Of a DNA stretch of 64,000 nt, positions 3,313 through 19,974 are shown one piece after another. The stretch spans positions 1,794,416 through 1,858,415 of the forward strand of contig NC_134032.1 of the NCBI RefSeq assembly GCF_964204645.1. The letters run 5' to 3'. A model generated the notes under the pieces. That model was not told where the DNA came from. It was given only the letters and a program-made list of their open reading frames with translations, and did no database searches. Each line of letters begins with the position of its first letter. The first letter of the stretch is position 1. The translations under genes were made by a program, and so were the position numbers. Source of the DNA: Tubulanus polymorphus (taxonomy: Eukaryota > Animalia > Nemertea).

Positions 3313-3318
3313 GCCATT
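3313..3318. repeat. Left 6-bp target-site duplication GCCATT
   Basis: Identical GCCATT directly follows the right TIR at 19969-19974; 6-bp TSDs are typical of Polinton integrases. Confidence 0.95.
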
Positions 3319-3411
3319 AGTAATTAGAAAAGTGGGGTTTCAGGCCAGAGGGCGTGAGGGCGAGACACCACTCATCACCACAAGTAATTTTTTTTCCTTA
3401 TAAATGGGGGA
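3319..3411 (+). repeat. Left terminal inverted repeat (93 bp)
   Basis: AGTAATTAGAAAAGTGGGG...TAAATGGGGGA matches the reverse complement of 19876-19968 with one mismatch (3399); the first 80 bp are perfect. Confidence 0.97.
3385..3406 (+). promoter_or_regulatory. Representative copy of the element-wide TAATTTTT-N-WWATAAATG promoter/start motif
   Basis: TAATTT starts 19 nt before the ATG in 10 genes, and at equal spacing to TAAAT in the 9838 gene; 4 more genes have TAAAA at -19/-20; all 15 have TAAAT at the start. Confidence 0.75.
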
Positions 3412-6400
3412 GAATGAACACCAGCCAGAAAACAATAATGTCAATAAAAATCAATATTATTGCCAATATTGTAAAAAATACATCGATACATCTCATAAAA
3501 CACGACATGAAAAAACTGCAAATCATATAAAAAATGTAATAGATTTTGAAACTCCAGAAAATTCTAATGAAATAAAAGAACGATTAGAAAATATGAATGT
3601 GGATGAAATAAAATGTGAAGTTTGTAATGAATTTATAGTAAAAAGGAATTATAATAGACATCTCGAATCACAAAAACATTATAAAAATTTAAATAAAAAT
3701 GTTTTAGGATCAGAATATTTTGATAATAAACCTCAACAAGTAAAAGAATCAACTTCAAAAACTAAATCCATTTCAAATAAACCTTACATGGAAAATGTTA
3801 GAAATTATATTGATTCACTAGAAATAAAAGATACAATTGAAATCTTAGAAACATTACATAGTAAAATTGGTCCTGCAGCTATTATATTTAGATTTTTTAA
3901 AGGTACAACAATAGAAGATTATAGTAAATTTAATGAAATAATAGAAAAAATACTAGATTTGATAACAGATGTTGAATATCCAAAAATAAGTATCTCTGGG
4001 AAAGTAAGTTTTATAAAGTCAGAAGAAAAAATGGATTATAATATTCAAACACACTCTGAAGAAATAATTTCAAAAACACAAATAAAAGAGAAGTTAGAAA
4101 AAATATTAAATGAATTTAAACGTCATATTGAAGAAAGATATTTTGAGGGTTCTGGCTTAACATTAAATGAAATTATATATTTAGATTTAAATGTTTATAA
4201 TACAAAAAGAAATAAAACATCAAAAAGTAATAAAATGTTTAAAAATGATTCAAACTTTACAACAGAAAAGGATATTAAAGCATCAAGTTATATCAAATTA
4301 CCATTTATAACAAAAGCAGTAATAAATATTCAAAATGAAGATAATAAATGTTTTCTATGGTCAATTATTAGTTGCTTACATCCAACAGAAGAACATGTTT
4401 ATAGAATAACAGATTACCGGAAATATGAAACATTATATAAAATTGATCAATATCCAGTAACTATAAAAATGATTCCTAAAATAGAAAAAGTTAATAATTT
4501 AAAAATAAATGTATTTGAATTAATGCAATTACCAAAGACAAAAGGTGAAAATATTAAAGATTATACATTGGAAGCTTTATATTTAACAGAATATTATGAT
4601 GATGAAAATGCTATAGATTTGTTATATTACAAAAAAGATGAAAATGAACATTATATGTGGTTAAAACAAATTGATTTATTCTTTAGAACAACAGAAAGTG
4701 ATCATCATCGTAAAATTTATCTTTGTAGAAAATGTTTATCTAAATTTATGACAGAGAATACATTATTAAAACATAAAGAATTATGTGATAATAAAGATTT
4801 TTGTAAATTAATAATGCCAACAGAAAAAGATTATAAATTGAAATTTACTAATCATAAATTTAAAAATATTGTTCCATTTGTAATTTATGGGGATTTTGAA
4901 TCGTTGAATAAAGAATTAACTGATCAAGATAGAAAAGAAATATATAACAAAAAGCAATTATTAAAATCAATGGATAAAGGAAATGAATTAAATGAAGACA
5001 CAATACAAGACCCACCAATTATAAATACAATTAAAAAAGTTCATCAAAGAGCTGCTGCTTATGGAATTTATATAAAATCAAATTATCCTGAATTATATGA
5101 AAGTCAATATATTTCTTTTAGAGGTGAAAATGTAGTTAATGATTTTTGTGATAAAATGATTGAATTAGAAAGTGATTTTGCAAAATTATTAAACAAAAAT
5201 AAAAGAATAGTTATGACAAAAGAAGATGAAATTGATTTTAATTATGCAACTCATTGTTGTTATTGTGAAAAACGTTTTTATTCATTTGATAAAAGAGTTA
5301 GAGATCATGATCATTTGAATTCAAAATATCGTGGAGCTGCTCATGAAGATTGTAATTTACAAGCTAAAAAAGTAAATTTCGTACCAATATTATTTCATAA
5401 TTTATCAGGATATGATACCCATCTATTTATAAAACAATTATCGGGAAAATTGGGTGCAATTAATCAAGAAATAGAAGAATATAATGCTATGAATGAAGCA
5501 AATGTAAGAAAATATGATTTTAAACTATTAGCTAAAACATCTGAAAATTATATTTCATTTCAATTTGGTTGCATTAGATTTTTAGATTCTTATAGATTTC
5601 TAGCAAGTTCATTAGATAATTTATCAAAATCATTAGTTGATAATGATTTTATTATAACTCGATATTATTATCCAAATGAACAAGATTTTAAATTATTGAG
5701 ATATAAAGGCGCAATTCCTTATTCATTTTATAAAACACATGATGATTTTAATGTAACAGAATTATTAAAAGATCAATTTTATGATCAATTAAAAGAGGAG
5801 TATGTGAAAGACGAAGTTTTTAATAGAACATTAAATATTTGGAACCATTTTAATATGAAAAATCATGGTGAATTAGTTGATTTATATTTAAAATCAGATG
5901 TTATGATATTGGCAGATATATTTGAAAAGTTTAGAGAAGTTAATCTAAACCATTTCAATGTTGACCCTTGTTATTGTTATTCAAGTCCTGGTTTAACCTG
6001 GCAATGTGGTTTAAAATATACAAATGTAGAATTAGATTTATTAAAAGAACCAGATATGGTTTTATTATTTGAAAAATCAATTAGAGGTGGAATTAGTGGT
6101 GTTATGGGAGATAGGTATTTTAAAGCAAATGATGAATATAAATTATTATATATTGACGCTAATAATTTATATGGTTGGGCAATGATGCAACCTCAACCAT
6201 ACAAAAATTTTATATTAACTGAAGTTGAAAATGATGATAAAACTGACTGGGAAAGCGCAATTACGAGTTTAAAAGATGAAGCACCAATTGGTTATTTCTT
6301 TGTAGTTGATTTGGAATATCCCGAAAATATTAAATTTAAAACAAGAAACTTGCCATATTGCCCTGAACATTTAGCCGTAGATGATAGTTATTTAAGTGAA

Positions 6401-8470
6401 TACCAGAAGAAAGTAAAACCGAAAGATCATGTTTTTACGGAAAAATTAATACTTACTCAAAATAATAAATACAATTATATTGTTCATTATAGAATGTTAA
6501 AATTTTATCTAAAACAAGGAATGAAATTAAAGAAAGTACATAGATATATTGAATTTAATCAATCGAAGTGGTTAGAAAAATATATAGATTTCAATACTCA
6601 ACAGAGAACCATATCAAAAACAGATTTTGAAAAAGATTTCTTCAAATTAATGAATAATAGTTTTTATGGTAAAACTTGTGAGAATATTCGTAATAGAAAC
6701 GATATTGAATTAGTAAATAATTCTGAACGATTGAGACACCTACAATCAAGTCCTAGACATTTAGGAAATAAAAGATTTGAAGATTATTTAACAGCAGTTA
6801 AATTAAAAAGAACATCAATGAAATTTAATAAACCTATATTTATTGGTTCGACTGTTTTAGAAGTATCAAAATTATTAATGTATGATTTTTATTATAATGT
6901 TTTACAACCACTTTTTGGAGAAAAACATATAGAAATATTATATTTTGATTCTGTAACAGCTGACACCCCAATATTATTAAAATACAATAACCAAATATTA
7001 ATTAGAAGAATTTCAGAAATAATTCCTAATCAAAATAAATCTTATATTTCATATGGTGAAAAAGAATTAATACAAATAAATGGATTAATGGATGTTTGGA
7101 CAAGAAATGGATGGAAAAAATTAAAGAATATTATTAGACATAAAACAAATAAGAAAATCTACAGAGTTAGAACTAAATTAGGATTTGTAGATGTTACAGA
7201 AGATCATAGTTTAATTAAACAAAATGGTGATGAAATAAAACCAACTAATATAAAAATTGGAGATGAATTATTACATAAAAGATTTTACCCAAGAATGAAT
7301 CATATGTCATTTGATGAAATAATTGATAATATTTATAATATAGAACCCGAAACATTAGAAGAAAAAGAATATTTTATCAAAGGATTTTTCATGGGTGATG
7401 GTTCAGCAGGTGTGTATAATTATGTTAGTGGAACTAAATATTGTTGGTATTTATGCAATCAAGACTTAAAATTATTAGAAAGAATTAAGAAATTCTGTGA
7501 AGAAGTTTATTCACATAAAACATTCAAAATCATAGATGTTATGAAATCATCGCAATGTTATAGAATACATGTGAATAATCCTAAAGATTTTGCTACAAAA
7601 TATAATGATGAATTCTATATTCATGCAATAGTGAAAAGTAATACTTCGACAAAAGAAAAGATAGTTCCAGATTATGTATTAAATGCAAAAAATAATTTAA
7701 GAAAATGGTTCTTCATTGGATTCTATGCAGCAGATGGTGCTAAAAAATTTACAAAGGATAAAAAGATAACCTTTGCACAGAAAGGAAAAGTTGCTATATC
7801 AGGGTTAAATATATTATGTAATTCATTAGGCTTCAATATGAATATTGGATTGATTAAATCTAAACCAAATTGCTTTAATCTAAGCCACACAGAAAAAGAT
7901 TTAACTGAAGAAGTTAAAGATTTATTTGAAATATATAACCCAACAGATTATGTTTATGATTTATCAACTGAAGATGGTACATTTAACTGTGGATTTCCAT
8001 TAATAGCAGTCAATACTGACGCCTACATACTAAAAATCAAGACAAATGACATAACAAAAGACTTAAAAACATTAAAACATCATTTTGATTTTAGCAATTA
8101 TCCCAAAGATCATGAACTATTTAGCAATGATAATAAAAAGATTCCCGGTAAATTTAAAGATGAATTAGGTGGTGAAGAAATGATAGAGTTTGTTGGGATA
8201 AGAAGTAAAATGTATTCATATAAAACTAAAGAACATGAAGCTAAAAAGTTAAAAGGAATAACAAAACATGTGGTTGATAAACATATAGAATTTCAAGATT
8301 ATATAAAGTGTTTATATAAATCAATTGTAATGAAACACAAAATGAATTGTTTAAGATCAGAAAATCATGAAATGTATATAAATGAAATTGAAAAAACTAG
8401 TTTAAATCCATTTGATGATAAAAGGCATATTTTAGATGATGGTATAAAAACATTACCTTATGGTTATTAA
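3404..8470 (+). CDS. polB: Protein-primed family B DNA polymerase precursor (1688 aa) with N-terminal C2H2 zinc fingers, an Endonuclease VII/HNH-like insertion and an intein
   Basis: ExoI VIYGDFES, ExoII FHNLSGYD, ExoIII YLKSDV, motif A YIDANNLYGWAM, motif B KLMNNSFYGK, motif C YFD...TD split by the intein; CxxC...RDHDH...RGAAHEDCN; CQYC/CEVC fingers. Confidence 0.97.
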   Translation: MGENEHQPENNNVNKNQYYCQYCKKYIDTSHKTRHEKTANHIKNVIDFETPENSNEIKERLENMNVDEIKCEVCNEFIVKRNYNRHLESQKHYKNLNKNVLGSEYFDNKPQQVKESTSKTKSISNKPYMENVRNYIDSLEIKDTIEILETLHSKIGPAAIIFRFFKGTTIEDYSKFNEIIEKILDLITDVEYPKISISGKVSFIKSEEKMDYNIQTHSEEIISKTQIKEKLEKILNEFKRHIEERYFEGSGLTLNEIIYLDLNVYNTKRNKTSKSNKMFKNDSNFTTEKDIKASSYIKLPFITKAVINIQNEDNKCFLWSIISCLHPTEEHVYRITDYRKYETLYKIDQYPVTIKMIPKIEKVNNLKINVFELMQLPKTKGENIKDYTLEALYLTEYYDDENAIDLLYYKKDENEHYMWLKQIDLFFRTTESDHHRKIYLCRKCLSKFMTENTLLKHKELCDNKDFCKLIMPTEKDYKLKFTNHKFKNIVPFVIYGDFESLNKELTDQDRKEIYNKKQLLKSMDKGNELNEDTIQDPPIINTIKKVHQRAAAYGIYIKSNYPELYESQYISFRGENVVNDFCDKMIELESDFAKLLNKNKRIVMTKEDEIDFNYATHCCYCEKRFYSFDKRVRDHDHLNSKYRGAAHEDCNLQAKKVNFVPILFHNLSGYDTHLFIKQLSGKLGAINQEIEEYNAMNEANVRKYDFKLLAKTSENYISFQFGCIRFLDSYRFLASSLDNLSKSLVDNDFIITRYYYPNEQDFKLLRYKGAIPYSFYKTHDDFNVTELLKDQFYDQLKEEYVKDEVFNRTLNIWNHFNMKNHGELVDLYLKSDVMILADIFEKFREVNLNHFNVDPCYCYSSPGLTWQCGLKYTNVELDLLKEPDMVLLFEKSIRGGISGVMGDRYFKANDEYKLLYIDANNLYGWAMMQPQPYKNFILTEVENDDKTDWESAITSLKDEAPIGYFFVVDLEYPENIKFKTRNLPYCPEHLAVDDSYLSEYQKKVKPKDHVFTEKLILTQNNKYNYIVHYRMLKFYLKQGMKLKKVHRYIEFNQSKWLEKYIDFNTQQRTISKTDFEKDFFKLMNNSFYGKTCENIRNRNDIELVNNSERLRHLQSSPRHLGNKRFEDYLTAVKLKRTSMKFNKPIFIGSTVLEVSKLLMYDFYYNVLQPLFGEKHIEILYFDSVTADTPILLKYNNQILIRRISEIIPNQNKSYISYGEKELIQINGLMDVWTRNGWKKLKNIIRHKTNKKIYRVRTKLGFVDVTEDHSLIKQNGDEIKPTNIKIGDELLHKRFYPRMNHMSFDEIIDNIYNIEPETLEEKEYFIKGFFMGDGSAGVYNYVSGTKYCWYLCNQDLKLLERIKKFCEEVYSHKTFKIIDVMKSSQCYRIHVNNPKDFATKYNDEFYIHAIVKSNTSTKEKIVPDYVLNAKNNLRKWFFIGFYAADGAKKFTKDKKITFAQKGKVAISGLNILCNSLGFNMNIGLIKSKPNCFNLSHTEKDLTEEVKDLFEIYNPTDYVYDLSTEDGTFNCGFPLIAVNTDAYILKIKTNDITKDLKTLKHHFDFSNYPKDHELFSNDNKKIPGKFKDELGGEEMIEFVGIRSKMYSYKTKEHEAKKLKGITKHVVDKHIEFQDYIKCLYKSIVMKHKMNCLRSENHEMYINEIEKTSLNPFDDKRHILDDGIKTLPYGY
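6950..8014 (+). mobile_element. Intein with LAGLIDADG homing endonuclease (355 aa, residues 1183-1537 of pPolB)
   Basis: Block A SVTADTPILL, block B VTEDHSL, LAGLIDADG-like FIKGFFMGDG and FFIGFYAADG, block F YVYDLSTE, terminal Asn followed by Thr+1; removal restores YFDTD. Confidence 0.95.
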
Positions 8471-9087
8471 AATGGATCTATATCATCAAACTCGAAATCA
8501 CTATTGGCTTCTTCATTTTCATTTAATTGTTCAGGTTCTTCTTCAATTCCATTTTTCTCATTTAAATAAATTTCTATCTTGTTCCACATTTCATCTCGCT
8601 CTCTTTGTTTCTTTTTGTTTGTTAATTCATCAAATGGAATTATAATATCTAGGTTTAAATAATTTACAATCTTATTTAAAAAGAATTCATAATTTATTGA
8701 ATCTGTTATTCTATTTTCCAAATGATACATTAATATTTGTTTAAATATTTTTTTTATATTTTCCATATCTTCTTCTGTTAATTTAGGTTTTTCATAATAA
8801 TCGTTAAATAATAAATATAAATACATTTTCTTTTCTTTTGTGTTAAATGTTGGTGGAATAATTGTTTTTATAATATCTTTTTTAGTTATTTCACCATTTT
8901 TATTTTCTATTATTTTCATTTTTTCAAGCCATTGCATATATTCTGGTGTATGATCTTCTATAGAAAATATTTTAAAAATTTCATCTAGATAATTTAATTT
9001 TGGTTCTATGAGAAAATCTCTAGTTTTTTCTTCACCCCATAAATTCTTTTGCCATCCGTCCACATTCAACACAAAATAACACAGCAC
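8467..9087 (-). CDS. Hypothetical protein with acidic tail; probably the 3' part of the zinc-finger gene 9769-9032 separated by a +1 frameshift
   Basis: Starts at GTG with no TAAATG motif; deleting one G of ATGGGGTGA (9040-9032) fuses the two ORFs as ...KEFMGEEKTRDF... Confidence 0.65.
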   Translation of the reverse strand: MLCYFVLNVDGWQKNLWGEEKTRDFLIEPKLNYLDEIFKIFSIEDHTPEYMQWLEKMKIIENKNGEITKKDIIKTIIPPTFNTKEKKMYLYLLFNDYYEKPKLTEEDMENIKKIFKQILMYHLENRITDSINYEFFLNKIVNYLNLDIIIPFDELTNKKKQRERDEMWNKIEIYLNEKNGIEEEPEQLNENEEANSDFEFDDIDPF

Positions 9088-9769
9088 CTTCTTGTCTTAA
9101 GGTCGCATAACTACATTGTGGGCATTTTCGTTTATAATTTATTGGTAATAGATCTTCATTAAGCTCTTGGTATTTTCTTACGTTTTCTTTATGTTTTATT
9201 GTTCTATTATGTAGATTTGAATTACTTGTTGTAATAATCAATTTACAATATTTACAATAATATGTTTTTCTTGTTAATTCATTATATTGTTTTTCTAACT
9301 TTTCAACTGTTTCTTTATTATCTGGTAACGTTTTCTCATATTTTATTTTTTCTAATAAATTATTTTTTCTTTCATTGAATTCAGTTTCAAATTTATTAGA
9401 AATTTTATCTATATGTGCTTTACGAAATTGATGATTTTCCCAATCTTCTATATTTTCAGGGCTATATTTTATTCGACAAGGCTCACAGAAATGATCTTTT
9501 ATATTATCCTTATCATAGAATAAGAAAGGTCTTTTCCAAATAACTTCAGGTTCAACTTCGGCAGATTTACTATCAACATTAGCCGTTGCGCCATTAATTC
9601 TACACTTCTCTGAATGTTTTTTAACATAATTTCTTGAGAATAATTTATTACATTTTGGACAGTTTATTTTAGGGGGTTTATAATTTTCATCATGTTTTTT
9701 CATATGTCGAGCCATATTACTTTTTCTGATAAGTTCACTACAAATTTCGCATGCTATCTTCTCATCCAT
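9032..9769 (-). CDS. Multi-zinc-finger protein
   Basis: CEIC..HMKKH, CPKC..HSEKC, CEPC..HQFRKAH, CKYC..HNRTIKH and a CPQC..CVEC ribbon; TAAATG start. Confidence 0.85.
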   Translation of the reverse strand: MDEKIACEICSELIRKSNMARHMKKHDENYKPPKINCPKCNKLFSRNYVKKHSEKCRINGATANVDSKSAEVEPEVIWKRPFLFYDKDNIKDHFCEPCRIKYSPENIEDWENHQFRKAHIDKISNKFETEFNERKNNLLEKIKYEKTLPDNKETVEKLEKQYNELTRKTYYCKYCKLIITTSNSNLHNRTIKHKENVRKYQELNEDLLPINYKRKCPQCSYATLRQEGAVLFCVECGRMAKEFMG

Positions 9770-9837
9770 TTATTAAGGAAACATTTTATTAAAATTAATT
9801 TTTAATGATGAGCGGTAATTTTTTTATGTTATAAATA

Positions 9838-10590
9838 ATGGTAGAATTAAAAGAATACAGAATATTTGTAGATTCTAGAAGGCTTACAAATTATAAATCT
9901 CATAATTTATTAATACAATTAGATAGAGAATTTAAGAATTGCGTTGATTTAAAATTAGTAAATATTAGTTTATGTAATTCTTTTTACAATGTAACGGATA
10001 AAAGTCTTGAACATTTAATTTTTTCAATCTTTTATAAAAAAAGGAATAAATGGTTTTTTATATATTTAAAACCAGGATTATATAATTTAAATACATTAGC
10101 ACAAGAAATTAATAGAAAAGCTCGAGCTAAATTAGGAAGTGATTCTGGATTTAATATTAGAATTTTAAAAAGTGCTAGTTCTAATAAAATAAAGATTAGG
10201 TTAGACGAACAATTTAAATTTACAGTAAGAAAACCTTTAGGTAAACTGTTAGGAATTGCCTCTGATATTGTTACAACATATGCAGAAGGTAAATCAAACT
10301 TAATACCTTTTACACATTTTTATATTTATTGTAATTTAATCGATCCTACAAAAACATTCAAAGCAACTAAAGATATAACTTGTAATTCTGGTTTACTAAA
10401 CATTTTACCATTGAAGAATGTTAAAGAATTTGGAACGCAAATAAATTATAATTTAACAGAATGTGATTTCAAACCATGCATTCCTAGTTTTAATAATTTT
10501 AAATTAGAAATAAGAAATCATAATGGATACTTAATTGATTTGAATAATTTCCCTGTAATTTATGAATTAGTTATAAGATGTAAAGAGTAA
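9838..10590 (+). CDS. Putative minor capsid (penton-like single jelly-roll) protein
   Basis: 250 aa, beta-rich; SFYNV..LKPGLYN..L..EIN, FYIYCNLI and C-terminal LEIRNHNGYLIDLNN pattern resembling Polinton pentons. Confidence 0.7.
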   Translation: MVELKEYRIFVDSRRLTNYKSHNLLIQLDREFKNCVDLKLVNISLCNSFYNVTDKSLEHLIFSIFYKKRNKWFFIYLKPGLYNLNTLAQEINRKARAKLGSDSGFNIRILKSASSNKIKIRLDEQFKFTVRKPLGKLLGIASDIVTTYAEGKSNLIPFTHFYIYCNLIDPTKTFKATKDITCNSGLLNILPLKNVKEFGTQINYNLTECDFKPCIPSFNNFKLEIRNHNGYLIDLNNFPVIYELVIRCKE

Positions 10591-10606
10591 TTTTTCACCT
10601 ATATAA

Positions 10607-10960
10607 ATGAATATAACTGTTGGACCGAGTATATGTTTTGGTTTTGATTTTAAACGTGAGAAAGAAATGAAATTTAATATGAATGATGTAATTACACATA
10701 TCAAAAATATTGCATTTTCTAATGAAACAACATTTGAGTATGAAACAACAATAGATAAAGAAACTTTTAATGTAGAAAAGATTACTAATTTAATTAGAGA
10801 ATCTTTAAGATTTTATGAATTAGATGAAGATTTTATCATCGATGATATCAAAAAAATAATAATTGAAATATATACAAATGAAACTAGTAATAAAATAAAT
10901 GTTGAATTAATCATAAATAAGTTAACTAAATATTTTGAAGATAGTAATTTTTTTGATTAA
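10607..10960 (+). CDS. Hypothetical protein (117 aa)
   Basis: Intact ORF with the conserved TAATTTT...TAAATG start motif. Confidence 0.75.
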   Translation: MNITVGPSICFGFDFKREKEMKFNMNDVITHIKNIAFSNETTFEYETTIDKETFNVEKITNLIRESLRFYELDEDFIIDDIKKIIIEIYTNETSNKINVELIINKLTKYFEDSNFFD

Positions 10961-10963
10961 TAA

Positions 10964-11185
10964 ATGAGTGATAATAAGTGGATAATAACTGGATTATATA
11001 ATGGAGCATTACTATCAGTTGGAACGGTTGGTTATTCAATGGTATTAAAAAAAGTATTCAAAATGGGAAGCGTTAATGTTGATAGATTTGATATAAATGA
11101 TATTTTAAAGTTAACATTAGCAGTTACTTTATCTAATTTAACAATTGATTATTTGGAAAAACAAAAATATATTCCTCCCATATAA
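10964..11185 (+). CDS. Small membrane protein (73 aa)
   Basis: Hydrophobic segments GLYNGALLSVGTVGYSMVL and ILKLTLAVTLSNL; TAAATG start. Confidence 0.75.
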   Translation: MSDNKWIITGLYNGALLSVGTVGYSMVLKKVFKMGSVNVDRFDINDILKLTLAVTLSNLTIDYLEKQKYIPPI

Positions 11186-11209
11186 ATGTATAATTTTTTT
11201 GCTAAATAA

Positions 11210-11632
11210 ATGGCTTCTGCAATTATAACTATTATAGGATCAGCAATTGTTAACGCTTTAGCATTTACAGGTGGTGGTTATTTATTTAAACATATTGATA
11301 AAAATAGTTCATTAGGAGAACAAAGAAGACATAACTTAGCGTTAGAGAAATACAATAAAGCTGCAGAAGAATATAGAGAAAAGAGACAAAACTATATGGA
11401 TTACATCAATAAAGAATTATATGATCAGAAGATTTCACATAGAGATTTTCAATCAGTTGATGATGCAATGAGTTTATATAACGCGGTAACAAATAAAGAA
11501 AAATTACATCTATACAAACCTAAATTATCAGATTATTATACCCCGAGTAAAGAACAACAGAAATATGAAATAATTTGGATTTTAGGTGGAACAGTTATTG
11601 TTATATTTGTTGCTTATAAGTTTACTAATTAG
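11210..11632 (+). CDS. Membrane protein (140 aa): hydrophobic N-terminus, coiled coil, C-terminal TM
   Basis: MASAIITIIGSAIVNALAFTGGG ... IIWILGGTVIVIFVAY; TAAATG start. Confidence 0.8.
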   Translation: MASAIITIIGSAIVNALAFTGGGYLFKHIDKNSSLGEQRRHNLALEKYNKAAEEYREKRQNYMDYINKELYDQKISHRDFQSVDDAMSLYNAVTNKEKLHLYKPKLSDYYTPSKEQQKYEIIWILGGTVIVIFVAYKFTN

Positions 11633-11651
11633 TAATTTTTATTCTAAATAA

Positions 11652-12086
11652 ATGGAAGATAAAGTTGATAGTATTGATATCATTCCTCATGATATAAATA
11701 AAACTAAATTAAAAATATATTTAGAAAAACAAATATTAGAATTTGAAAGTGACCTAAAGATAAAAAAGAAAAAATATTTAAAAAGTAAAATTATATATTA
11801 TTTGATTATAAGTGGTTCGGTTACAATTAGTTCTGTAATAACATTTCTAGCAATATTCAGTCCATTAACACCTTTAGCTATATCAATTGGTGTATTAGGA
11901 TTAAGTTCAAGTGTTTTAACTGGTATAAGTTCAAAATTAAATATAAAAAGTAATAAAGAAAAAATAAAATCTAATATAAAAGAAATTAATAAATTAAAGA
12001 ATACACTAGATTATATAATAAGTTTAAATGGTCATATAACAGTTGAAGAACAAGATAAATTATTAAAAGAATTAATAAATTATTAA
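11652..12086 (+). CDS. Two-TM membrane protein with flanking coiled coils (144 aa)
   Basis: Central hydrophobic hairpin IIYYLIISGSVTISSVITFLAIF / LAISIGVLGLSSSVLTGI; TAAATG start. Confidence 0.8.
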   Translation: MEDKVDSIDIIPHDINKTKLKIYLEKQILEFESDLKIKKKKYLKSKIIYYLIISGSVTISSVITFLAIFSPLTPLAISIGVLGLSSSVLTGISSKLNIKSNKEKIKSNIKEINKLKNTLDYIISLNGHITVEEQDKLLKELINY

Positions 12087-12102
12087 TTTTTTAATTATAT
12101 AA

Positions 12103-13491
12103 ATGGTGGATAGTTTTCCAAAAGCTTTCCAATATAATAAATCAATTAAATATAATATTCCAGCAATAGATTTTAATAAAGATATTACATATAGAAATGA
12201 AGTTTTAAATTCATTAATTGATTTATATATTTATGTTACTGAAACTAATAATTTTAATGCAAAGATGGAAAATATATTTCATATATATTTAATTAATTTT
12301 AAAAAATTGAAAGATGAAAAACAATGGTTATTAAAATCTAATATGAAGTATTGGCAGAATCAATTAAATTTTGCTGTTTATTGTGCAACAACGGGATGTG
12401 GAATTAGTTGGAATGATCATTTGAATAATTCTAAATATAAATTAATTCAAAGTTTATTTAGATTTCATACATACTTTCAAATCAGAATAATATTAAATGA
12501 ATTAGAGTGCGCTTTACCAGGATCTAGATATTTTAAAGAATTGGATAATAATATTAATTTATCTAAGTTTTATAAAATTTGCAATGAATTTAATATAGAT
12601 ATAAATAATTCTGATTTTAGAATAAAAATTGGAACAATAAGATCACTTCCATGCCCTAGAAAGATTGCAGAATATTGTGCACTTCCCATACCATCTAATA
12701 GTTTTTATAATATCTATAATAAAAAATTAGGTTATGGTAAAATAGAAACAAAGGATTTAGAAACATTAAATTTCAATAAATTACCGAAATTTTATGATAA
12801 TTTAAAACAAGAAAACAATAATGGTTGGGTTTATTTTATTTTAGAAAATAGTGAAGGTTTTACTAAATCAGGTATAGAAAGAATAAATCAATCTATTAGA
12901 ACTTATTTGATATGTATTCTAGGTGCGCAAGTTGAAACAAGATCCCAAATAATTGGAAATGATAACACTTCATTCGATACACAAAAACAATTTAAAGTTT
13001 TATTTGAAGATTCAATTCATAATGATAAAAATAGATCGATTCCAGAAAACATTATAAGATATCAAAATTATTTAGATAAATCTCATGTAAGACTAAATTA
13101 TTGTATAGGCCCTAATCTATTAATTATTTCTAATGATTTAGTATTGAAGATGGGAAACATAATTGCTTATAATAATCTAATTAAAACTGCAACAATAAAT
13201 AATTCATTTGGATTAAATGATATAAATAAAAAGATTATCACTGCTCCAAAATTAATGGAAGGTGAAAAAAATAAAAAACATATTCAATCAACAGAAACTA
13301 AAACTAAGAATATTAAATTGGTTAATGATTCCAAAATAAAAGATTACAATACATCAGAAAATATAAAAACTGATAATATTCAACATGATATAATTAAACA
13401 AAATGACGATAATAAATCCCATGAAAATACTAAATTAGCTATAACTTGTATAGGAATTGTAATCGGAGGAATATTATATTTTAAATTTTAA
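12103..13491 (+). CDS. Hypothetical viral protein (462 aa) with C-terminal membrane anchor
   Basis: Long intact ORF, WQNQLNFAVYCATTGCGIS motif, terminal LAITCIGIVIGGILYF; TAAATG start. Confidence 0.85.
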   Translation: MVDSFPKAFQYNKSIKYNIPAIDFNKDITYRNEVLNSLIDLYIYVTETNNFNAKMENIFHIYLINFKKLKDEKQWLLKSNMKYWQNQLNFAVYCATTGCGISWNDHLNNSKYKLIQSLFRFHTYFQIRIILNELECALPGSRYFKELDNNINLSKFYKICNEFNIDINNSDFRIKIGTIRSLPCPRKIAEYCALPIPSNSFYNIYNKKLGYGKIETKDLETLNFNKLPKFYDNLKQENNNGWVYFILENSEGFTKSGIERINQSIRTYLICILGAQVETRSQIIGNDNTSFDTQKQFKVLFEDSIHNDKNRSIPENIIRYQNYLDKSHVRLNYCIGPNLLIISNDLVLKMGNIIAYNNLIKTATINNSFGLNDINKKIITAPKLMEGEKNKKHIQSTETKTKNIKLVNDSKIKDYNTSENIKTDNIQHDIIKQNDDNKSHENTKLAITCIGIVIGGILYFKF

Positions 13492-13507
13492 TTTTTTTAT
13501 TATATAA

Positions 13508-14128
13508 ATGGAAGAAGATATTCCAATGGATACTTTAGATGAACCTGGTATAAGTGATGAACAACAACCTGATTTTGATGAAACAAGTTTCAGTAATGAT
13601 AATAAAACGGTATATAATACTAATTTAGGTGAAGATGATGATTATGATGATGATTATGATGATGATTATGATGATGGTCCCGAATTACGTGAAAAATTAA
13701 ATAAAATTAAAATTAAAATAACAGATACAATTGTTAACGAATTACTACCAAAAGATGTAATAGATGAAATTGATTCAGAAGAAATTGTAAAACAAATTTT
13801 AAAAGATGATCCATTTTTCATGAATAATTTAGAATTAAAAAATAATGTGTGGTATTATAATGTTGAATTAAATAACAAAATTGTATCAGTTCAATTATCT
13901 AAAATGAGACAAGAAAATCTGTTCCATCTAGAAATGCGAGCAAGATCTACAATTGAAGGTTCAAAAGGCGGTAGAGAATTTCTCAGAATTATATGGAATG
14001 CAATCAATAGAATAAATGAAGAAGAACCAATTCCTAATATTGATATAAACAAATATTCACCATTTAAAAATCCAAATCCGAATCCTACTGATTTTAATCC
14101 AGAGATGGAAGAGAATAGAAATCGATAG
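13508..14128 (+). CDS. Acidic N-terminal half of a probable 534-aa protein (13508-15113) split by a +1 frameshift
   Basis: DDDY repeats; the downstream frame is open across 14100-14222; removing one A near 14114 gives ...MEEIEIDRLRSS... Confidence 0.75.
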   Translation: MEEDIPMDTLDEPGISDEQQPDFDETSFSNDNKTVYNTNLGEDDDYDDDYDDDYDDGPELREKLNKIKIKITDTIVNELLPKDVIDEIDSEEIVKQILKDDPFFMNNLELKNNVWYYNVELNNKIVSVQLSKMRQENLFHLEMRARSTIEGSKGGREFLRIIWNAINRINEEEPIPNIDINKYSPFKNPNPNPTDFNPEMEENRNR

Positions 14129-14222
14129 ATTAAGATCTTCAACACCCGAAACATCTAGAAGAGATATTCAACAAATTGATAATGATTCAAATCAATTACA
14201 ATTAGGAAAACATTTTGATAGC

Positions 14223-15113
14223 ATGTTAGATGCAATTCATTCATTTGACGAAGAGATGAATAGTATTTTAGATACACCCGGTACTGAAACTGAAATAAAT
14301 CGAATACAATCTTTACTAGAAAAAGGATTACTTGATTTAACTGATGAAGAATTAAAACAATTTCCTGAAAAAGCACGTAGAGAAATTAAAGGTATGCAAG
14401 AATCAGCTGGTGAAATTGCTAATATTAAGATGAGATTTTCTAAAATAACCATGTTAGAAAAAGAATTAACTGATGCAAATGAAGAATTTAAACAATTAGA
14501 ATTAAATAGAGATCTTCAATTAATCGAGGAAGCTGATTATGAAAGCAGAAAGTTAGCTTTAGAAAAAGAAATAGATGATTTAGAATATAACATAAAATTA
14601 CAAAAAGAAGAAAGAGATACATTATTAAAATCATATGATCTTAATCATATTAAAAAATTAAAAGTTATTTTTAAAGATTTGTTGATTAAACCAGATTCTG
14701 AAATATCATTAAAAGACAGAATAAAATTATTATTTAAATTAGAAGGAATAACAATTCTTTCAATTCTAACAGCTGTAACTATGTTATTTACAACAATTGG
14801 TTTAGCTATATCAAATGCTTTGAAATCTACTCCTACTCCCACTCCCAATAAACCAGATAAACCCCCGAATGATAATTCTATACAAGATAAAGTTAAGGAT
14901 GGTTTAAAGAAATTAGCAAAATATTTATGGGAACTATCTAAAAAATCTGCTGCAGCATTGCCAGGAGTTATTGCTTCAATTGTTGGTTTTTTATTGAAAT
15001 CTGCAGGTAATATTCTTAACTTTGCTGCTGAACATATTATTTTATTTTTAATTACAGTTGTAAGTGCTATTATTTTTGGGTTAGTAAATATGATATCAAA
15101 AAATATCAAGTAA
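14223..15113 (+). CDS. Coiled-coil, multi-TM membrane protein (C-terminal half of 13508-15113)
   Basis: Long E/K/L heptad region, TM ITILSILTAVTMLFTTIGLAI, Pro-rich linker, two more hydrophobic helices; lacks its own TAAATG motif. Confidence 0.8.
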   Translation: MLDAIHSFDEEMNSILDTPGTETEINRIQSLLEKGLLDLTDEELKQFPEKARREIKGMQESAGEIANIKMRFSKITMLEKELTDANEEFKQLELNRDLQLIEEADYESRKLALEKEIDDLEYNIKLQKEERDTLLKSYDLNHIKKLKVIFKDLLIKPDSEISLKDRIKLLFKLEGITILSILTAVTMLFTTIGLAISNALKSTPTPTPNKPDKPPNDNSIQDKVKDGLKKLAKYLWELSKKSAAALPGVIASIVGFLLKSAGNILNFAAEHIILFLITVVSAIIFGLVNMISKNIK

Positions 15114-15157
15114 ACTATGATATCAAAAAATAAATAATTAATTTTTTTGTTAAATAA

Positions 15158-16405
15158 ATGAGTGGGAGTTATGTAAGTCCTTCGAAGAATCATAGAATAT
15201 CTAATGCTATTAAAGCAGAGAGATCACATCATATAATTACTCATAACCCTTCTAATATTAATCCCGATGAAACTTTATACGTTAGAATCCCTCGATTAAC
15301 ACAAAATACTTTTTATGTTCCAAACAGTATTTATTTATCAGCCGATATAAAAGTAACTGGCCATGATAACAATTATGTTGTTGATAATGTTGGAAGATAT
15401 TTGATTAAAAAATTAACTATAAAGATTGGTCCGGAAACAGTTTTCTCATTAGATGATTATAATTTATTTATGCATTATAAAGATTTATGGTTAACTAAAG
15501 AAAATAGAAATAATATGATATTTCAAGGCATCCAATCGGAAAACCATAATAAATTAAGATCTGAAGCCAATAATGCAGTAGTAACTCGTGCCACAGATAA
15601 TTTGATTAAAAAGATTTATGGAAGCAAATATAAAATTCCATTAGACTTTGAATTGATAAATAATAATGCACCTTTATATAAATACGCAATTCAAGAAGAT
15701 ATTATATTTGAGATAACATTTGCTCCTGTAAATGAAATTGTATTATCTAGCGTTGTTAAAGATATGGGTTATAAATTATCGAATATATGTTTAGAATATA
15801 ACACAGTAACTAATGAAAATATTGCTAGCACAATTCAAACTCAATACAATCAAGGATTTTCATTATTATATGATTATATTGATAAATTTAAAACTGTAAC
15901 TATTAATGCAAATGATGAAATAATTAATGAGAATATTAACTTTCCTAGAAGATCTATTAAAGGTATATTAATATTTTTTACTATTGCAACATATTCTAAT
16001 GGTGCAATAAATGTTGATAATTATTATAATCCTGAAATAACAAAAGTAGAAATAACTATTGAAGGTATAGCGAATAAAATATTTTGTCAAGGAATGAGAA
16101 TGATTGATCAATGGCCAGAAATTAGAAAACATTTTATGAATGAAAAAGTGAAATCATTTGAAAATTGTAACATTAATCAAATTGATTATTATACTGGTAA
16201 TAAATATGCATTATGGTTAGATTTTAGAACAACTGAAGATAACTTATTACATGGTTCTGGAAAAAAACTACAAAATACAAAAGATGGAATACAATTATTC
16301 ATGAAAAAGAATAAAGGAATCAAAAATTTTAAAATGCACATTTATATTATATCTGACGCGCAATTAAATATTGTAAATTCACAATTAGATAGTATTCAAT
16401 ATTAG
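15158..16405 (+). CDS. Putative major capsid protein (double jelly-roll)
   Basis: 415 aa, beta-rich; THNPSNINPDETLYVRIP, IKKLTIKIG, YKIPLDF, ALWLDFRT; size and position next to integrase and ATPase fit a Polinton MCP. Confidence 0.75.
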   Translation: MSGSYVSPSKNHRISNAIKAERSHHIITHNPSNINPDETLYVRIPRLTQNTFYVPNSIYLSADIKVTGHDNNYVVDNVGRYLIKKLTIKIGPETVFSLDDYNLFMHYKDLWLTKENRNNMIFQGIQSENHNKLRSEANNAVVTRATDNLIKKIYGSKYKIPLDFELINNNAPLYKYAIQEDIIFEITFAPVNEIVLSSVVKDMGYKLSNICLEYNTVTNENIASTIQTQYNQGFSLLYDYIDKFKTVTINANDEIINENINFPRRSIKGILIFFTIATYSNGAINVDNYYNPEITKVEITIEGIANKIFCQGMRMIDQWPEIRKHFMNEKVKSFENCNINQIDYYTGNKYALWLDFRTTEDNLLHGSGKKLQNTKDGIQLFMKKNKGIKNFKMHIYIISDAQLNIVNSQLDSIQY

Positions 16406-16435
16406 AAATATAAAGTTAAAATTAAGCGTATATAA

Positions 16436-17543
16436 ATGGGAGGTAAAAAATCTCCTAATACTAAAGAACAATATTTAAGAAATTTATATTACAACCCTGA
16501 GAGTTCGGTTGCTTATTCTTCTACTAAAAATATATGGCGTAAAGTAAATAATCCCACAAAATTTAGTTAAATATAAAGATATAAATGAATTTATGTTAGA
16601 ACAACCAACGTATACAACACATAAAAAAATTGTTAGAAAATATAAAACTCGTAAAACTATGGTAAGTTATGTAGATCAACAGTGGCAAGGAGATTTAATT
16701 GATATGAAAAATGTTAAGAAAGATAATGATGATTATTGGTGGTTATTGAATATAATTGATATTTTTAGTCGTTATGTATGGAGCTTCCCACTTTATAGAA
16801 AAGATGCTGTACAAACATCAAATGTTTTAAGAAAATTTCTTTCGGATGATAAACTAAAACCAGAAAAAATACAATTTGATGATGGAAAAGAATTTGATAA
16901 TTCACTTATTCATGAACTCTTAGATAATCATAATATTAAATATTTTTCAACAAAATCAGATAAAAAAGCAGCAGTTGTTGAACGATTTAATAGAACATTA
17001 AGAACAAGAATGTGGAAATATTTTACAGCAAATAATACTTTTAAATGGATTGATATTTTACCAAAATTGATAGAAGGATATAATAATTCTTATCATTCTT
17101 CTATTGGAATGAAACCTATTGATGCTAGAAAACCTGAAAATGCTGAAATTGTTTGGAATAATTTATATGGAGCATTTCTTATAGATGATTTTGGCGAACC
17201 TAAATTTAAAGTTGGTCAAAATGTTAGAATTTCTAAGTATAAAAAGATATTTGATAAAGGATACGATCGAAATTTTACTAGAGAAATATATAAAATAAAA
17301 AAGGTAATAACAACAAAACCATATGTCTATAAATTAGAAGATTTAGATGGAGAAGAAGTTGATGGATATTTTTATGAAGAAGAATTAAGTTTAACTACTG
17401 AAAATCTAGAACAAGAATATAAAATTGAAAAAGTATTAAAAACAAAAACTGTTAAAAGAAAAAAATATTCTTTAGTAAAATGGGTTGGATGGCCAGATAA
17501 ATTCAATGAATGGATATTATCAAGTAAAATTAAAAATATATAA
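16436..17543 (+). CDS. Retroviral-like (RVE, DDE) integrase with C-terminal chromodomain; true start probably 16436 with a +1 frameshift at ~16548-16567 (ORF track shows 16593-17543)
   Basis: WQGDLIDM, IQFDDGKEF, AAVVERFNRTL catalytic triad; chromodomain YKIEKVL...LVKWVGWPDKFNEWI; upstream frame MGGKK...LYYNPESSVAYSS starts at TAAATG. Confidence 0.93.
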
Positions 17544-18152
17544 ATGAATAAGGAATTATTCATATTTGAGCCTCATAATATGTTAATTTCTGGTGTAACA
17601 AATTGTGGAAAAACGTATTTTATATTAAATTTATTAGAAACTGTTTACAAAAACTATTTTGATAATATAGTATTATTTTGTCCAACATATGAATTTAATC
17701 AAACTTATGATAGAAACATTACTAGAAATAATAAATTTATTATATTAGATCCTAAAACAGTAAAAGAAAATTTAGATAATTGTATAAAAATAGCAATTGA
17801 TATTTATAAAGGATCAAATACATTATTTATCATAGATGATTGTGCTAATCTACATGATTCAAAAGTTAGAGAAAGTGAGTTATGTTATTTAGCTTTCTCT
17901 GGAAGACATTTTGGGATAACAACTTGGGTTTTAAATCAAAAATATAATTCAATTGTTAAAGATTTTAGAGAAAACATTAGATTTCTAGTTTTATTCTACA
18001 ATAAAGATAGAAAATCAATGAAAAATGCACTTGAGGAAAATGATATTATTCCACATGATTTACATAATGAATATATGGATGAGTTGAAAAATATTAAAAG
18101 ATCAAAATTACTATTTAGATTACAACACCCATTTAAATATGAATTTATTTAA
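17544..18152 (+). CDS. A32/FtsK-HerA-like genome packaging ATPase
   Basis: Walker A GVTNCGKT, Walker B LFIIDD, GRH motif followed by ..LNQ. Confidence 0.92.
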   Translation: MNKELFIFEPHNMLISGVTNCGKTYFILNLLETVYKNYFDNIVLFCPTYEFNQTYDRNITRNNKFIILDPKTVKENLDNCIKIAIDIYKGSNTLFIIDDCANLHDSKVRESELCYLAFSGRHFGITTWVLNQKYNSIVKDFRENIRFLVLFYNKDRKSMKNALEENDIIPHDLHNEYMDELKNIKRSKLLFRLQHPFKYEFI

Positions 18153-18153
18153 A

Positions 18154-18426
18154 TTCAACTAGTTTGTTAATCTAATTGAATTCTAGTTACATTCTAGTTG
18201 AATTCTAGTTGTTAGTAGTTGAAACAAAAATCAATTAGATTTAACAATATTTCAACTAGCTTGTTAATCTATTTTAATTCTAGTTACATTCTAGTTGAAT
18301 TCTAATTGTTAGTAGTTGAAACAAAAATCAACTAGAATGTAACTAGAAATAAACAAAAACAACAATATTTCAACTAGCTTGTTAATCTAGTTGAATTCTA
18401 GTTACATTCTAGTTGAATTCTAGTTG
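18154..18426. repeat. Intergenic repeat: ~97-bp unit x ~2.7 built from ATTCTAGTTGA/ATTCTAGTTAC subunits with inverted copies
   Basis: TTCAACTAG-TTGTTAATCTA.. restarts at ~18154, 18251, 18369; inverted CAACTAGAATGTAACTAGAA at ~18329. Confidence 0.85.
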
Positions 18427-18457
18427 CAACAACACAACTAATTTGTTTGTTATATAA

Positions 18458-19063
18458 ATGGGAGGTGAAAAGAAAATAAAATCTAAAAATGGTGATGTTA
18501 CAATTGAAAAAACTTTAGATGATTTAGGAATAACAGAAACAAAATTAACTCCAGATGATGGTGCTTTAAATAATGTTACAACAAATAATAATTATGAATA
18601 TTATCTTTATTGTAAACATCAATTAGAAATATTAATAGCATCTGGAAAATGTAAAAATTTTGTCGGTAAAAATTTAACTTATAATGAATTAGATACAATG
18701 AAATCAGATGAAATTATTAGATTATTTAAGATTTATGAAGCCGCGAGAACAGCTAGAATTAATGACGCGATATCAGAAAATGTAGTAAAAGGTTATAGTA
18801 AATTATGTAATTATATACTACCAATTGAAGATGAAAATAGATTATATTCTGATTTAAAAAATGATTATTTAGTTATGACTGAATTAAATAAATGGATTGG
18901 ATATTTATCTTTTCAATTAGGTGGATTTATGACATTATTATCAACTGGGGTTATAACATTTTCAAATATTGAAAGTAAAAATATTTCTATAATAAATGAG
19001 CGAGGTGAAAGAAGTGAAGGAATTAACTGTGAAGAAAAAACCGAGAACTCAGAAACAAATTGA
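18458..19063 (+). CDS. Hypothetical protein (201 aa) with a hydrophobic segment near the C-terminus
   Basis: Intact ORF, TAAATG start, WIGYLSFQLGGFMTLLSTGVITF. Confidence 0.8.
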   Translation: MGGEKKIKSKNGDVTIEKTLDDLGITETKLTPDDGALNNVTTNNNYEYYLYCKHQLEILIASGKCKNFVGKNLTYNELDTMKSDEIIRLFKIYEAARTARINDAISENVVKGYSKLCNYILPIEDENRLYSDLKNDYLVMTELNKWIGYLSFQLGGFMTLLSTGVITFSNIESKNISIINERGERSEGINCEEKTENSETN

Positions 19064-19364
19064 ATGGTCTCGACAATTAGGAATTGAATCACAAGAATAT
19101 AAAAAAGCTGTAAAAGAAAAAATAAGTAATAAAAATGTTAATAAAAATGGTGAAAATATTGTTATTTCTACTCCTTCTGATAGTAGAATATTTGATAAAT
19201 ATTTATATTTTACAGTTGGATTTGTAATTGTGTTCATTTTGATTGGGTGTAATTGGTATAAGAAATCAAATAAAATTCATGATATTAGTAATTCTGAACC
19301 AACTGCTATCAAAAATGAAAATACTTCTGAAATTCCAAAATTAATAATAAAAAAAATGGATTAA
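18996..19364 (+). CDS. Basic single-TM protein (122 aa)
   Basis: KKKPRTQKQIEW basic N-terminus, TM YLYFTVGFVIVFILIGC; TAAATG start overlapping the previous gene. Confidence 0.75.
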   Translation: MSEVKEVKELTVKKKPRTQKQIEWSRQLGIESQEYKKAVKEKISNKNVNKNGENIVISTPSDSRIFDKYLYFTVGFVIVFILIGCNWYKKSNKIHDISNSEPTAIKNENTSEIPKLIIKKMD

Positions 19365-19396
19365 TATTTTAGAAAAAAAGCAAAAAAATAATTGAA

Positions 19397-19475
19397 TATC
19401 ACTATGTGGGTGCCGTACGGCACCATCTCACTACTTTTGTCTATCACTGTGTGGGTGCCGTTTATGGCACCATCT
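19397..19475. terminator. Twin GC-rich hairpins between convergent genes (candidate 3'-end/termination signal)
   Basis: Perfect palindrome GGTGCCGTACGGCACC (19409-19424) and GGTGCCGTTTATGGCACC (19454-19471) within a ~33-bp direct repeat. Confidence 0.5.
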
Positions 19476-19556
19476 ATGCGGAGCAATTAAATTGTCCAGA
19501 TAAGTCATTTCGGATTCTAGATATTCATTATTTTTACTAATTTATTTTTTTTAAAT

Positions 19557-19883
19557 TTAATCAACAATTTCTAAATCATGATGGCCATCTTCATTTTTTC
19601 CATGATAGATTATTTTAAATCCTTCTAAATCTTTTAATTCCTCTGTACTCAATGAAGCCCATTTATCAGGTAAAAATACTTTAAATTCTCGCGATGTACT
19701 TACATTACAGTAGCTTAAATTAGCTGATACTTTCTCTCCATATTTAGTTTTTATCTTTTCTAATTTCAATATTTTATGTTCAATTTCTTTTGTAACATCA
19801 ACTAACTTTTTTATTTCAAATTGTTTTTTTGCTGGTTTTATTCTGTTATTTATTGTTGCTAAGAATGCTTTTCTATCCCCCAT
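19557..19883 (-). CDS. Small protein (108 aa) starting within the right TIR; possible OB-fold ssDNA-binding protein
   Basis: ATG lies in the TIR, mirroring the pPolB ATG; beta-rich KTKYG...VFLP...IIYHG pattern; function is inference only. Confidence 0.7.
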   Translation of the reverse strand: MGDRKAFLATINNRIKPAKKQFEIKKLVDVTKEIEHKILKLEKIKTKYGEKVSANLSYCNVSTSREFKVFLPDKWASLSTEELKDLEGFKIIYHGKNEDGHHDLEIVD

Positions 19884-19968
19884 TTATTAGGAAAAAAAAT
19901 TACTTGTGGTGATGAGTGGTGTCTCGCCCTCACGCCCTCTGGCCTGAAACCCCACTTTTCTAATTACT
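19876..19968 (-). repeat. Right terminal inverted repeat (93 bp)
   Basis: Reverse complement of 3319-3411, one mismatch. Confidence 0.97.
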
Positions 19969-19974
19969 GCCATT
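19969..19974. repeat. Right 6-bp target-site duplication GCCATT
   Basis: Matches 3313-3318. Confidence 0.95.

Follow-up and report, generated by a model that had tools for sequence, protein, structure and literature searches.

We analyzed a window (the whole stretch under study) of 64,000 nucleotides (nt) from the nemertean Tubulanus polymorphus, contig NC_134032.1, positions 1,794,416 to 1,858,415. It contains an integrated Maverick/Polinton element in which every gene starts behind the same signal, with the consensus AA-WW-T-(T-rich)-ATAAAT(G). The signal has a fixed spacing, is restricted to gene starts, and is conserved in a single clade of related elements; the element itself has a gene for a VLTF3-like protein and no RNA polymerase domain. 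We predict that the element is a virophage-like satellite and that the signal serves as a post-replicative promoter for the RNA polymerase that a co-infecting large DNA virus supplies, a reading to which we give slightly better than even chances.

An original prediction, made from the letters of the window, had described this signal at 15 genes, and its positional claims proved accurate. The number of genes is 15 once three broken genes are each counted once. Counting upstream from the ATG and naming genes by their start coordinate, TAATTT begins at -19 at all 10 starts listed for it, TAAAA lies at -19 (9769 on the reverse strand, 16436, and 17544) or -20 (18996), and at 9838 the TAATTT-N10-TAAAT spacing is intact with the ATG 3 nt further on. 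TAATTT-N10-TAAAT occurs 11 times on the two strands of the window, always at these gene starts. TAAAT is present at 15/15 starts and TAAATG at 14/15, and the invariant columns (15/15) are A-18, A-17, T-14, and ATAAAT. As background we used the 655 other ATGs within the same AT-rich element. TAA directly precedes 14/15 gene starts versus 35/655 other ATGs, TAATTT at -19 precedes 10/15 versus 1/655, and either class of motif combined with TAA before the ATG is found at 14/15 versus 1/655. Shuffling the upstream 40-mers 20,000 times gave a mean of 0.04 and a maximum of 2. The motif is enriched over AT-matched background by both measures, with p-values that are optimistic for a motif defined on the same 15 starts; the independent test lies in the relatives.

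Two further claims stood in part. The proposed division into two classes is real, in that positions -16/-15 are TT in 11 starts and AA in 4 with none mixed (chance, 1 in 1365), but both classes fit one consensus, and we read them as versions of a single post-replicative promoter that differ in strength or timing. Reuse of the preceding gene's TAA stop, said to be frequent, does occur at 10588, 12084, and 13489, but this is 3/10 of the tandem junctions checked; one further stop lies at -6 and one at -3.

A motif that overlaps the start codon might instead act in translation or mRNA processing, as a start context, a stop-start coupling signal, or a T-run terminator. The three reused stops are consistent with such a role, as are the true stop-start TAAATG at 17544, the T runs that follow several stops, and the scarcity of T5NT in sense open reading frames (ORFs). 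However, T occupies -3 at 14/15 starts, the opposite of the purine usual in eukaryotic start contexts. The motif is also present at 3404, 19883, 9769, and 9838, which have no gene end just upstream, and at 9838 the spacing is held to TAAAT, not to the ATG. The scarcity of T runs is paralleled by that of A runs (A7, 7 versus 21.4 expected). We consider a translational or processing function highly improbable. T5NT scarcity was likewise rejected as evidence for a pox-type terminator, since A runs are equally scarce, which indicates general homopolymer avoidance. Coding DNA of the window and of related loci L001 to L017 avoids long A/T runs (A7, 27 versus 57 expected); the iridovirus-like and sister loci described below do not.

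A capsid alignment fetched 47 loci, 31 of them with at least one scorable orthologous start. TAAATG is present at 42/48 orthologous starts in the 15 loci with capsid identity of at least 49%, a cut chosen after inspecting the loci, versus 0/53 in the 16 loci below it. After removal of five near-duplicate loci, the counts are 39/44 for the clade versus 0/40 for the sister lineages. We prefer these orthologue counts to an all-ORF count (49/60 versus 2/102) that assigns two loci with short matches to the first group on identity alone. A capsid tree was built from the window, 24 of the 47 loci, and 8 proteins, with 23 loci dropped for short matches or lack of a scorable start. All TAAATG-positive loci fall in one clade of this tree (support, 99/96), indicating one evolutionary event and not many; L014, within the clade, scored 0/2. 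Base composition is no explanation, as TAAATG stands at 7/9 ORF starts in L006 to L008 (36-44% GC) versus 0/10 in L021, L025, and L026 (29-31% GC). Accessory genes absent from the window also lie behind the motif, for example a deoxynucleoside kinase gene (L001:10340-10981). The best-kept upstream bases in clade relatives are T-12 (36/39) and T-13 (31/39); by class, in our reading, the start of the ATPase gene is A-rich in 4/4, that of the 18996 gene A-rich in 3/4, and that of the capsid gene T-rich in 9/11. We regard the predicted clade-wide promoter code as real.

The sister lineages without TAAATG (L018, L019, L021, L022, and L026 to L028) have A at -3 in 24/40 starts and TATA within -25 to -4 in 23/40, with peaks at -5 to -9. 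TATA is also found at 16/44 starts of the TAAATG clade, so its enrichment in the sisters is not established. This TATA is reminiscent of the late initiator of asfarviruses, also TATA (PMC7163114), and could be the mark of another helper or of a host-type promoter. Capsid queries of the viral_contigs collection returned no relatives. Capsid proteins 55% identical to that of the window (P0045 and cluster 10) are filed under Bartonella assemblies and are likely carried-along animal DNA, in which case the family extends beyond marine hosts.

The motif could also be a relic of former helper dependence, with present copies persisting or spreading in another way. Three genes of the present copy are frameshift-broken and copies within the same species differ by 1-10%, as might be expected of a relic. 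However, all 15 starts here retain an intact motif, as do those of elements with capsids as little as ~50% identical, and the best-supported 40 of 100 read variants in 10540-11720 leave the invariant motif bases of the four promoters there unchanged. We therefore find this explanation improbable.

The signal was compared with published poxvirus consensus strings. In vaccinia late promoters, the TAAAT is as a rule followed by G, and the 10th base upstream is a conserved T (PMC11980589; PMC5294985); the "Group I" core is the consensus given in Table 1 of PMC11423596. This core matches 11/14 window starts versus 0/35 non-start TAAATG sites in the element, and T-N9-TAAATG matches 11/14 versus 11/35. 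The late or post-replicative geometry claimed for the signal is supported by these counts, but the equation of its A-rich class with vaccinia intermediate promoters fails on spacing (0/14), the A-rich class lying 3-4 nt closer than the intermediate core. Like vaccinia post-replicative promoters (late, Group I; same three sources), the element's signal has TAAAT over the start codon, a purine after the ATG, and a conserved T ~10 nt upstream of TAAAT. Unlike them, it is far more uniform, with near-invariant AA at -18/-17, and it serves all genes, the polymerase gene included. The VLTF3-like and ATPase genes are in the A class, which fits with vaccinia A2L and A32L both being intermediate.

As the original prediction held, the element's ORFs include no RNA polymerase domain recognized by Pfam, several small ORFs being unassigned. 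It had overlooked that the element encodes its own predicted VLTF3-like late transcription factor domain, in the C-terminal part of the 9769 gene product (Pfam Pox_VLTF3, 27.8 bits; cut-off, 25). A zinc-ribbon CxxC...CxxC lies directly before the frame break in this gene. In the atlas, the domain scored 0.94 with 206/256 features and a low recognition score. The best viral Foldseek match of the structural model (pLDDT, 76) is cowpox VLTF3 (E = 3e-4; TM, 0.66), with the VLTF3 of an entomopoxvirus in third place and those of many other giant viruses ranked lower. Searched against the PDB, the model has no match at E 0.001 and the sequence only zinc-finger and weak matches. Among 1.84 billion representatives, the protein has only three relatives, and these closest three lack a Pox_VLTF3 match in Pfam. 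A profile of four VLTF3-like sequences matched no ORF in the fetched loci, where most clade loci are short fragments. The occurrence of VLTF3 in some polintons has already been published (PMC11131425).

Such a factor could also redirect host RNA polymerase II, so that the element would be autonomous and the poxvirus look of its promoters would reflect the factor's shared ancestry. VLTF3-like genes are found both in the TAAATG clade and in sister lineages of other promoter grammar, as for an element-encoded specificity factor. Mriyaviruses, with genomes of 35-45 kb, carry VLTF2 and VLTF3 and are not known to have an RNA polymerase. However, the motif also precedes the VLTF3-like gene itself, and the cycle must therefore have another trigger. 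A start in or just before TAAATG would leave no leader, a problem that vaccinia answers by polymerase slippage, and a canonical TATA box 3-8 nt before the ATG would place the start within the ORF. Further, the sense ORFs hold 5.3 AATAAA per kb (77 observed versus 66.5 expected); this absence of avoidance fits transcription outside the host nucleus. We judge transcription by a redirected polymerase II to be a serious but unlikely account.

If the element is instead a satellite, TAAAT would contain the transcription start, so that the templated 5' untranslated region would be almost nil, and slippage on the three A's may add a poly(A) leader, by analogy with vaccinia. A start within TAAAT and a slippage-made poly(A) leader are described for vaccinia and for yeast virus-like elements (PMC6211774; PMC7163114). 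The T-rich tract 12-14 nt upstream would form the core element, and the VLTF3-like factor might join the late initiation complex of the helper. Before a helper is present the provirus would remain inactive, because polymerase and integrase genes share the signal of the capsid gene and no helper-independent early promoter is obvious. Virophage promoters match the late motif of their own giant virus, EMALE types differ in motif, and transcription by the polymerase of the helper has been proposed for virophages with such matching promoters (PMC10945749). The occlusion bodies of entomopoxviruses contain polinton-like viruses (PMC11296320).

A motif scan of viral contigs found no helper; it covered 120 loci, with one match each among the 80 listed, and 29/120 matches open an ORF of at least 60 amino acids (aa); two of five records, searched over their full length, gave one match each. 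The scan did match two isolate records of iridovirus-like content, and a poxvirus as the sole candidate did not withstand the comparison that follows. We take L168 to L201 to be iridovirus-like from their Pfam domain content. The sample comprises 13 loci, of 39 fetched, from 10 related records that are kin and not independent. In these records (L168, L169, L176, L180, L188, L198, and related ones), AATAAATG stands at 83/206 ORF starts (~40%), versus 1-7% of other ATGs for TAAATG, which leaves room for a helper other than a poxvirus. Like the element, the iridovirus-like starts have TAAATG, with A at -4 in 83/83. They have A at -9 in 62/83 and no fixed T at -12 to -14 (T-12, 40/83 versus 48/53 in the Maverick clade), and the Group I core matches 11/83 of them. 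The review passages on invertebrate iridovirus promoters do not mention AATAAATG. Particles resembling iridoviruses have been reported in marine invertebrates, a marine worm among them (PMC5923455). In our reading, sequence favors a pox-like reader and ecology favors an iridovirus. Given a satellite, a pox-like helper would have roughly a little over half of the probability, an invertebrate iridovirus a substantial minority share, and any other virus a small remainder.

Several points weigh against the satellite reading or its pox-like form. Group I is a loose A/T consensus; its core matches 12/23 starts in close relatives and 2/16 in distant clade members, and the full version, including the -21 pyrimidine, matches 2/14 window starts. 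The intermediate consensus TAAAAA-N14-TAAA matches none of these 14 starts and 0/39 in relatives. Promoter class is off vaccinia timing for the capsid (D13L, intermediate) and polymerase (E9L, early) genes, and position -5 separates the iridovirus-like starts (A in 79/83) from those of the Maverick clade (A in 26/53). Weak VLTF3 matches below the cut-off (E = 6e-4 and 4e-5) are also present in L018 and L022, two sister loci without TAAATG; VLTF3 thus extends beyond the TAAATG clade and gives no indication of a pox helper. The sister lineages, too, show no clear avoidance of AATAAA, and the route of an integrated nuclear copy to a cytoplasmic factory lacks an explanation. No poxvirus of marine invertebrates was met in the literature passages. 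The pox-like helper is proposed from predicted promoters and gene content, with both helper and transcription inferred.

The element is a Maverick/Polinton provirus. Terminal inverted repeats, AG...CT ends, and a 6-bp target duplication are the hallmarks of this group, and all are present (Table 1). The identification also follows from the protein-primed polymerase (pPolB) with intein, the rve integrase with chromodomain, the A32 ATPase, and the probable capsid protein. GC content per kb is 21-28% in the element versus 33-46% in most flanking windows. In DNA reads bearing this species label, coverage of the element is ~150-1000x in most bins versus ~70x in the leftmost flank bin, and the reads are mostly 90-99% alike, which indicates a multi-copy family. 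Just upstream of 9838 and past 19919, numerous reads of other copies diverge, indicating subfamilies that differ in the outer terminal repeat and the divergent promoter region (divergence at 9837 and 19919).

The pPolB matches DNA_pol_B_2 with 76 bits (cut-off, 25.8) and Intein_splicing with E = 2.5e-10; the intein, with a LAGLIDADG-like domain, spans approximately 7005-7975. The integrase matches rve with 41.5 bits in addition to the chromodomain. The 415-aa product is probably the major capsid protein, as predicted from a weak Capsid_N match below the cut-off (E = 0.0097) and 763 homologues, some on megabase contigs of eukaryote size. The 250-aa product may be a minor capsid protein, a guess from size and context. 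For the 108-aa protein, Foldseek returned only weak matches to the model, the best to DUF669 phage proteins (E = 2e-3); a role in single-strand DNA binding is possible. A PHROGs comparison of 12 element proteins was uninformative. The ORFs 8467-8937 (reverse strand), 14223-15113, and 16593-17543 are the downstream parts of the broken genes that start at 9769, 13508, and 16436. Unbroken counterparts exist in P0121 (9769 gene; its start matches L001), in a 486-aa ORF of L001 (13508 gene), and in a 363-aa ORF of L002 (integrase).

Between the ATPase gene and the next gene (18154-18454) lie three related ~86-nt repeats, rich in CTAGTT/AACTAG and with strong folding (z = -5.9). Two GC-rich palindromes (GGTGCC...GGCACC) at 19400-19480, between convergent genes, are a candidate terminator or processing site. 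One of four segments at convergent gene ends (19365-19500, + strand) folds better than shuffles (z = -2.6), and a general hairpin rule for such ends was dropped on this count; the pPolB/VLTF3 junction folds no better than shuffles. Outside the element, a single-exon host gene for a rhodopsin-family receptor (21417-22355) has five matches at E 1e-10, all from Tubulanus polymorphus and the best 64% identical, which points to a ribbon worm as the likely host. The ORF 23159-23974, without a Pfam match, resembles the tail of a non-LTR retrotransposon.

Table 1. Features of the Tubulanus polymorphus element, in window coordinates
Feature	Positions	Strand	Details
Integrated Maverick/Polinton	3319..19968	.	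16,650 bp; AG start, CT end; ~21-28% GC
Left target-site duplication	3313..3318	+	GCCATT
Right target-site duplication	19969..19974	+	GCCATT
Left terminal inverted repeat	3319..3411	+	93 nt; holds promoter and start of polymerase gene
Right terminal inverted repeat	19876..19968	-	93 nt, 99% complementary; holds promoter and start of 108-aa gene
Protein-primed DNA polymerase B	3404..8470	+	1688 aa; zinc fingers, intein/LAGLIDADG insert; Pfam DNA_pol_B_2, E 3e-21
Zinc-finger and VLTF3-like gene (poxvirus A2-like late transcription factor)	8467..9769	-	Frame broken near 9030-9060
Six genes (250, 117, 73, 140, 144, 462 aa)	9838..13491	+	Several with hydrophobic segments; kept in relatives
One gene, coiled-coil and hydrophobic C-terminal part	13508..15113	+	Frame broken near 14100-14130
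Probable major capsid protein	15158..16405	+	415 aa
Retroviral-type integrase with chromodomain	16436..17543	+	Pfam rve, Chromo; frame broken near 16550-16590
A32-like packaging ATPase	17544..18152	+	Pfam Pox_A32, E 2.7e-13, 50.4 bits
Two genes (201, 122 aa)	18458..19364	+	Conserved in relatives
Small beta protein	19557..19883	-	108 aa; model pLDDT 73
T-class motif	3385..3406	+	Before pPolB
A-class motif	9767..9788	-	Before zinc-finger/VLTF3-like gene
T-class motif	9816..9840	+	TAAAT, then ATG 3 nt later than usual
T-class motif	10588..10609	+	First TAA is preceding gene's stop
T-class motif	10945..10966	+	
T-class motif	11191..11212	+	
T-class motif	11633..11654	+	
T-class motif	12084..12105	+	First TAA is preceding gene's stop
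T-class motif	13489..13510	+	First TAA is preceding gene's stop
T-class motif	15139..15160	+	Before probable major capsid gene
A-class motif	16417..16438	+	Before integrase gene
A-class motif	17525..17546	+	Before packaging ATPase; TAA of TAAATG is integrase stop
T-class motif	18439..18460	+	
A-class motif	18976..18998	+	TAAAA at -20; within end of preceding ORF
T-class motif	19881..19902	-	In right terminal repeat

Among known systems, the Mavirus and EMALE type 4 elements of Cafeteria (PMC10945749) resemble this element in being integrated, in encoding an integrase and pPolB without an RNA polymerase, and in using one common promoter motif; as in the Mavericks studied here, different lineages have different motifs. 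They carry the CroV late motif (TCTA) in a protist host and their helper dependence has been shown, whereas the present element has TAAATG, an animal host, a Maverick/Polinton gene set with a VLTF3-like gene, and a dependence that we infer. The polinton-like viruses of entomopoxvirus occlusion bodies (Barth et al. 2024, PMC11296320) are likewise small, Polinton-related, proposed parasites of poxviruses, and from an animal host. Compared here by description, they differ in having highly divergent capsids and in staying ungrouped; a term search of the main text of that source showed no promoter analysis.

Animal Mavericks, Polintons, and adintoviruses (PMC8502044; PMC11131425; 10.64898/2026.06.19.733378) share pPolB, the rve integrase, the A32 ATPase, terminal inverted repeats, and the 6-bp target duplication with the element, as well as a capsid gene, which is a probable one here, and VLTF3 is known in some. 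Unlike group 1 Mavericks/adintoviruses as first defined, the element has no match to a protease family, and hence none to an adenovirus-like maturation protease, among its ORFs in Pfam; group 2 Mavericks have more variable gene content. The passages of these sources describe no gene-by-gene pox-type promoter. The yeast cytoplasmic virus-like elements pGKL1/2 (PMC6211774) differ from the Maverick in that their upstream element resembles pox early promoters, they have no capsid or integrase, and pGKL2 encodes its own RNA polymerase. We found no description of a TAAAT(G) promoter code in Mavericks in the full-text literature, a body in which subscription journals are thinly covered and supplements fall outside the scope; other Polinton papers, checked by term, held no relevant promoter analysis in the passages found. 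We view the motif sharing described here as virophage-style promoter sharing extended to an animal Maverick, with a putative helper.

These results bear on gene expression in animal Mavericks/Polintons and on their autonomy or dependence on a helper, in a group for which the sources cited describe no observed virions so far. A bolder proposal, which we hold as doubtful, is that the whole Maverick clade consists of endogenous virophages whose helper is a pox-like virus, yet to be discovered, of marine invertebrates; its late complex would be captured by their own VLTF3, and sister clades would have changed from one promoter grammar to another (TAAATG versus a TATA initiator like that of asfarviruses) along with changes of helper. 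If so, Maverick promoters would be a readable record of unknown animal giant viruses. For the satellite reading itself, the 22-nt motif before every gene predicts what the late promoters of the helper would look like. If that reading is true, the integrated-virophage arrangement known from protists would extend to animals, and clade-specific promoters would point to large DNA viruses of invertebrates that are yet to be found.

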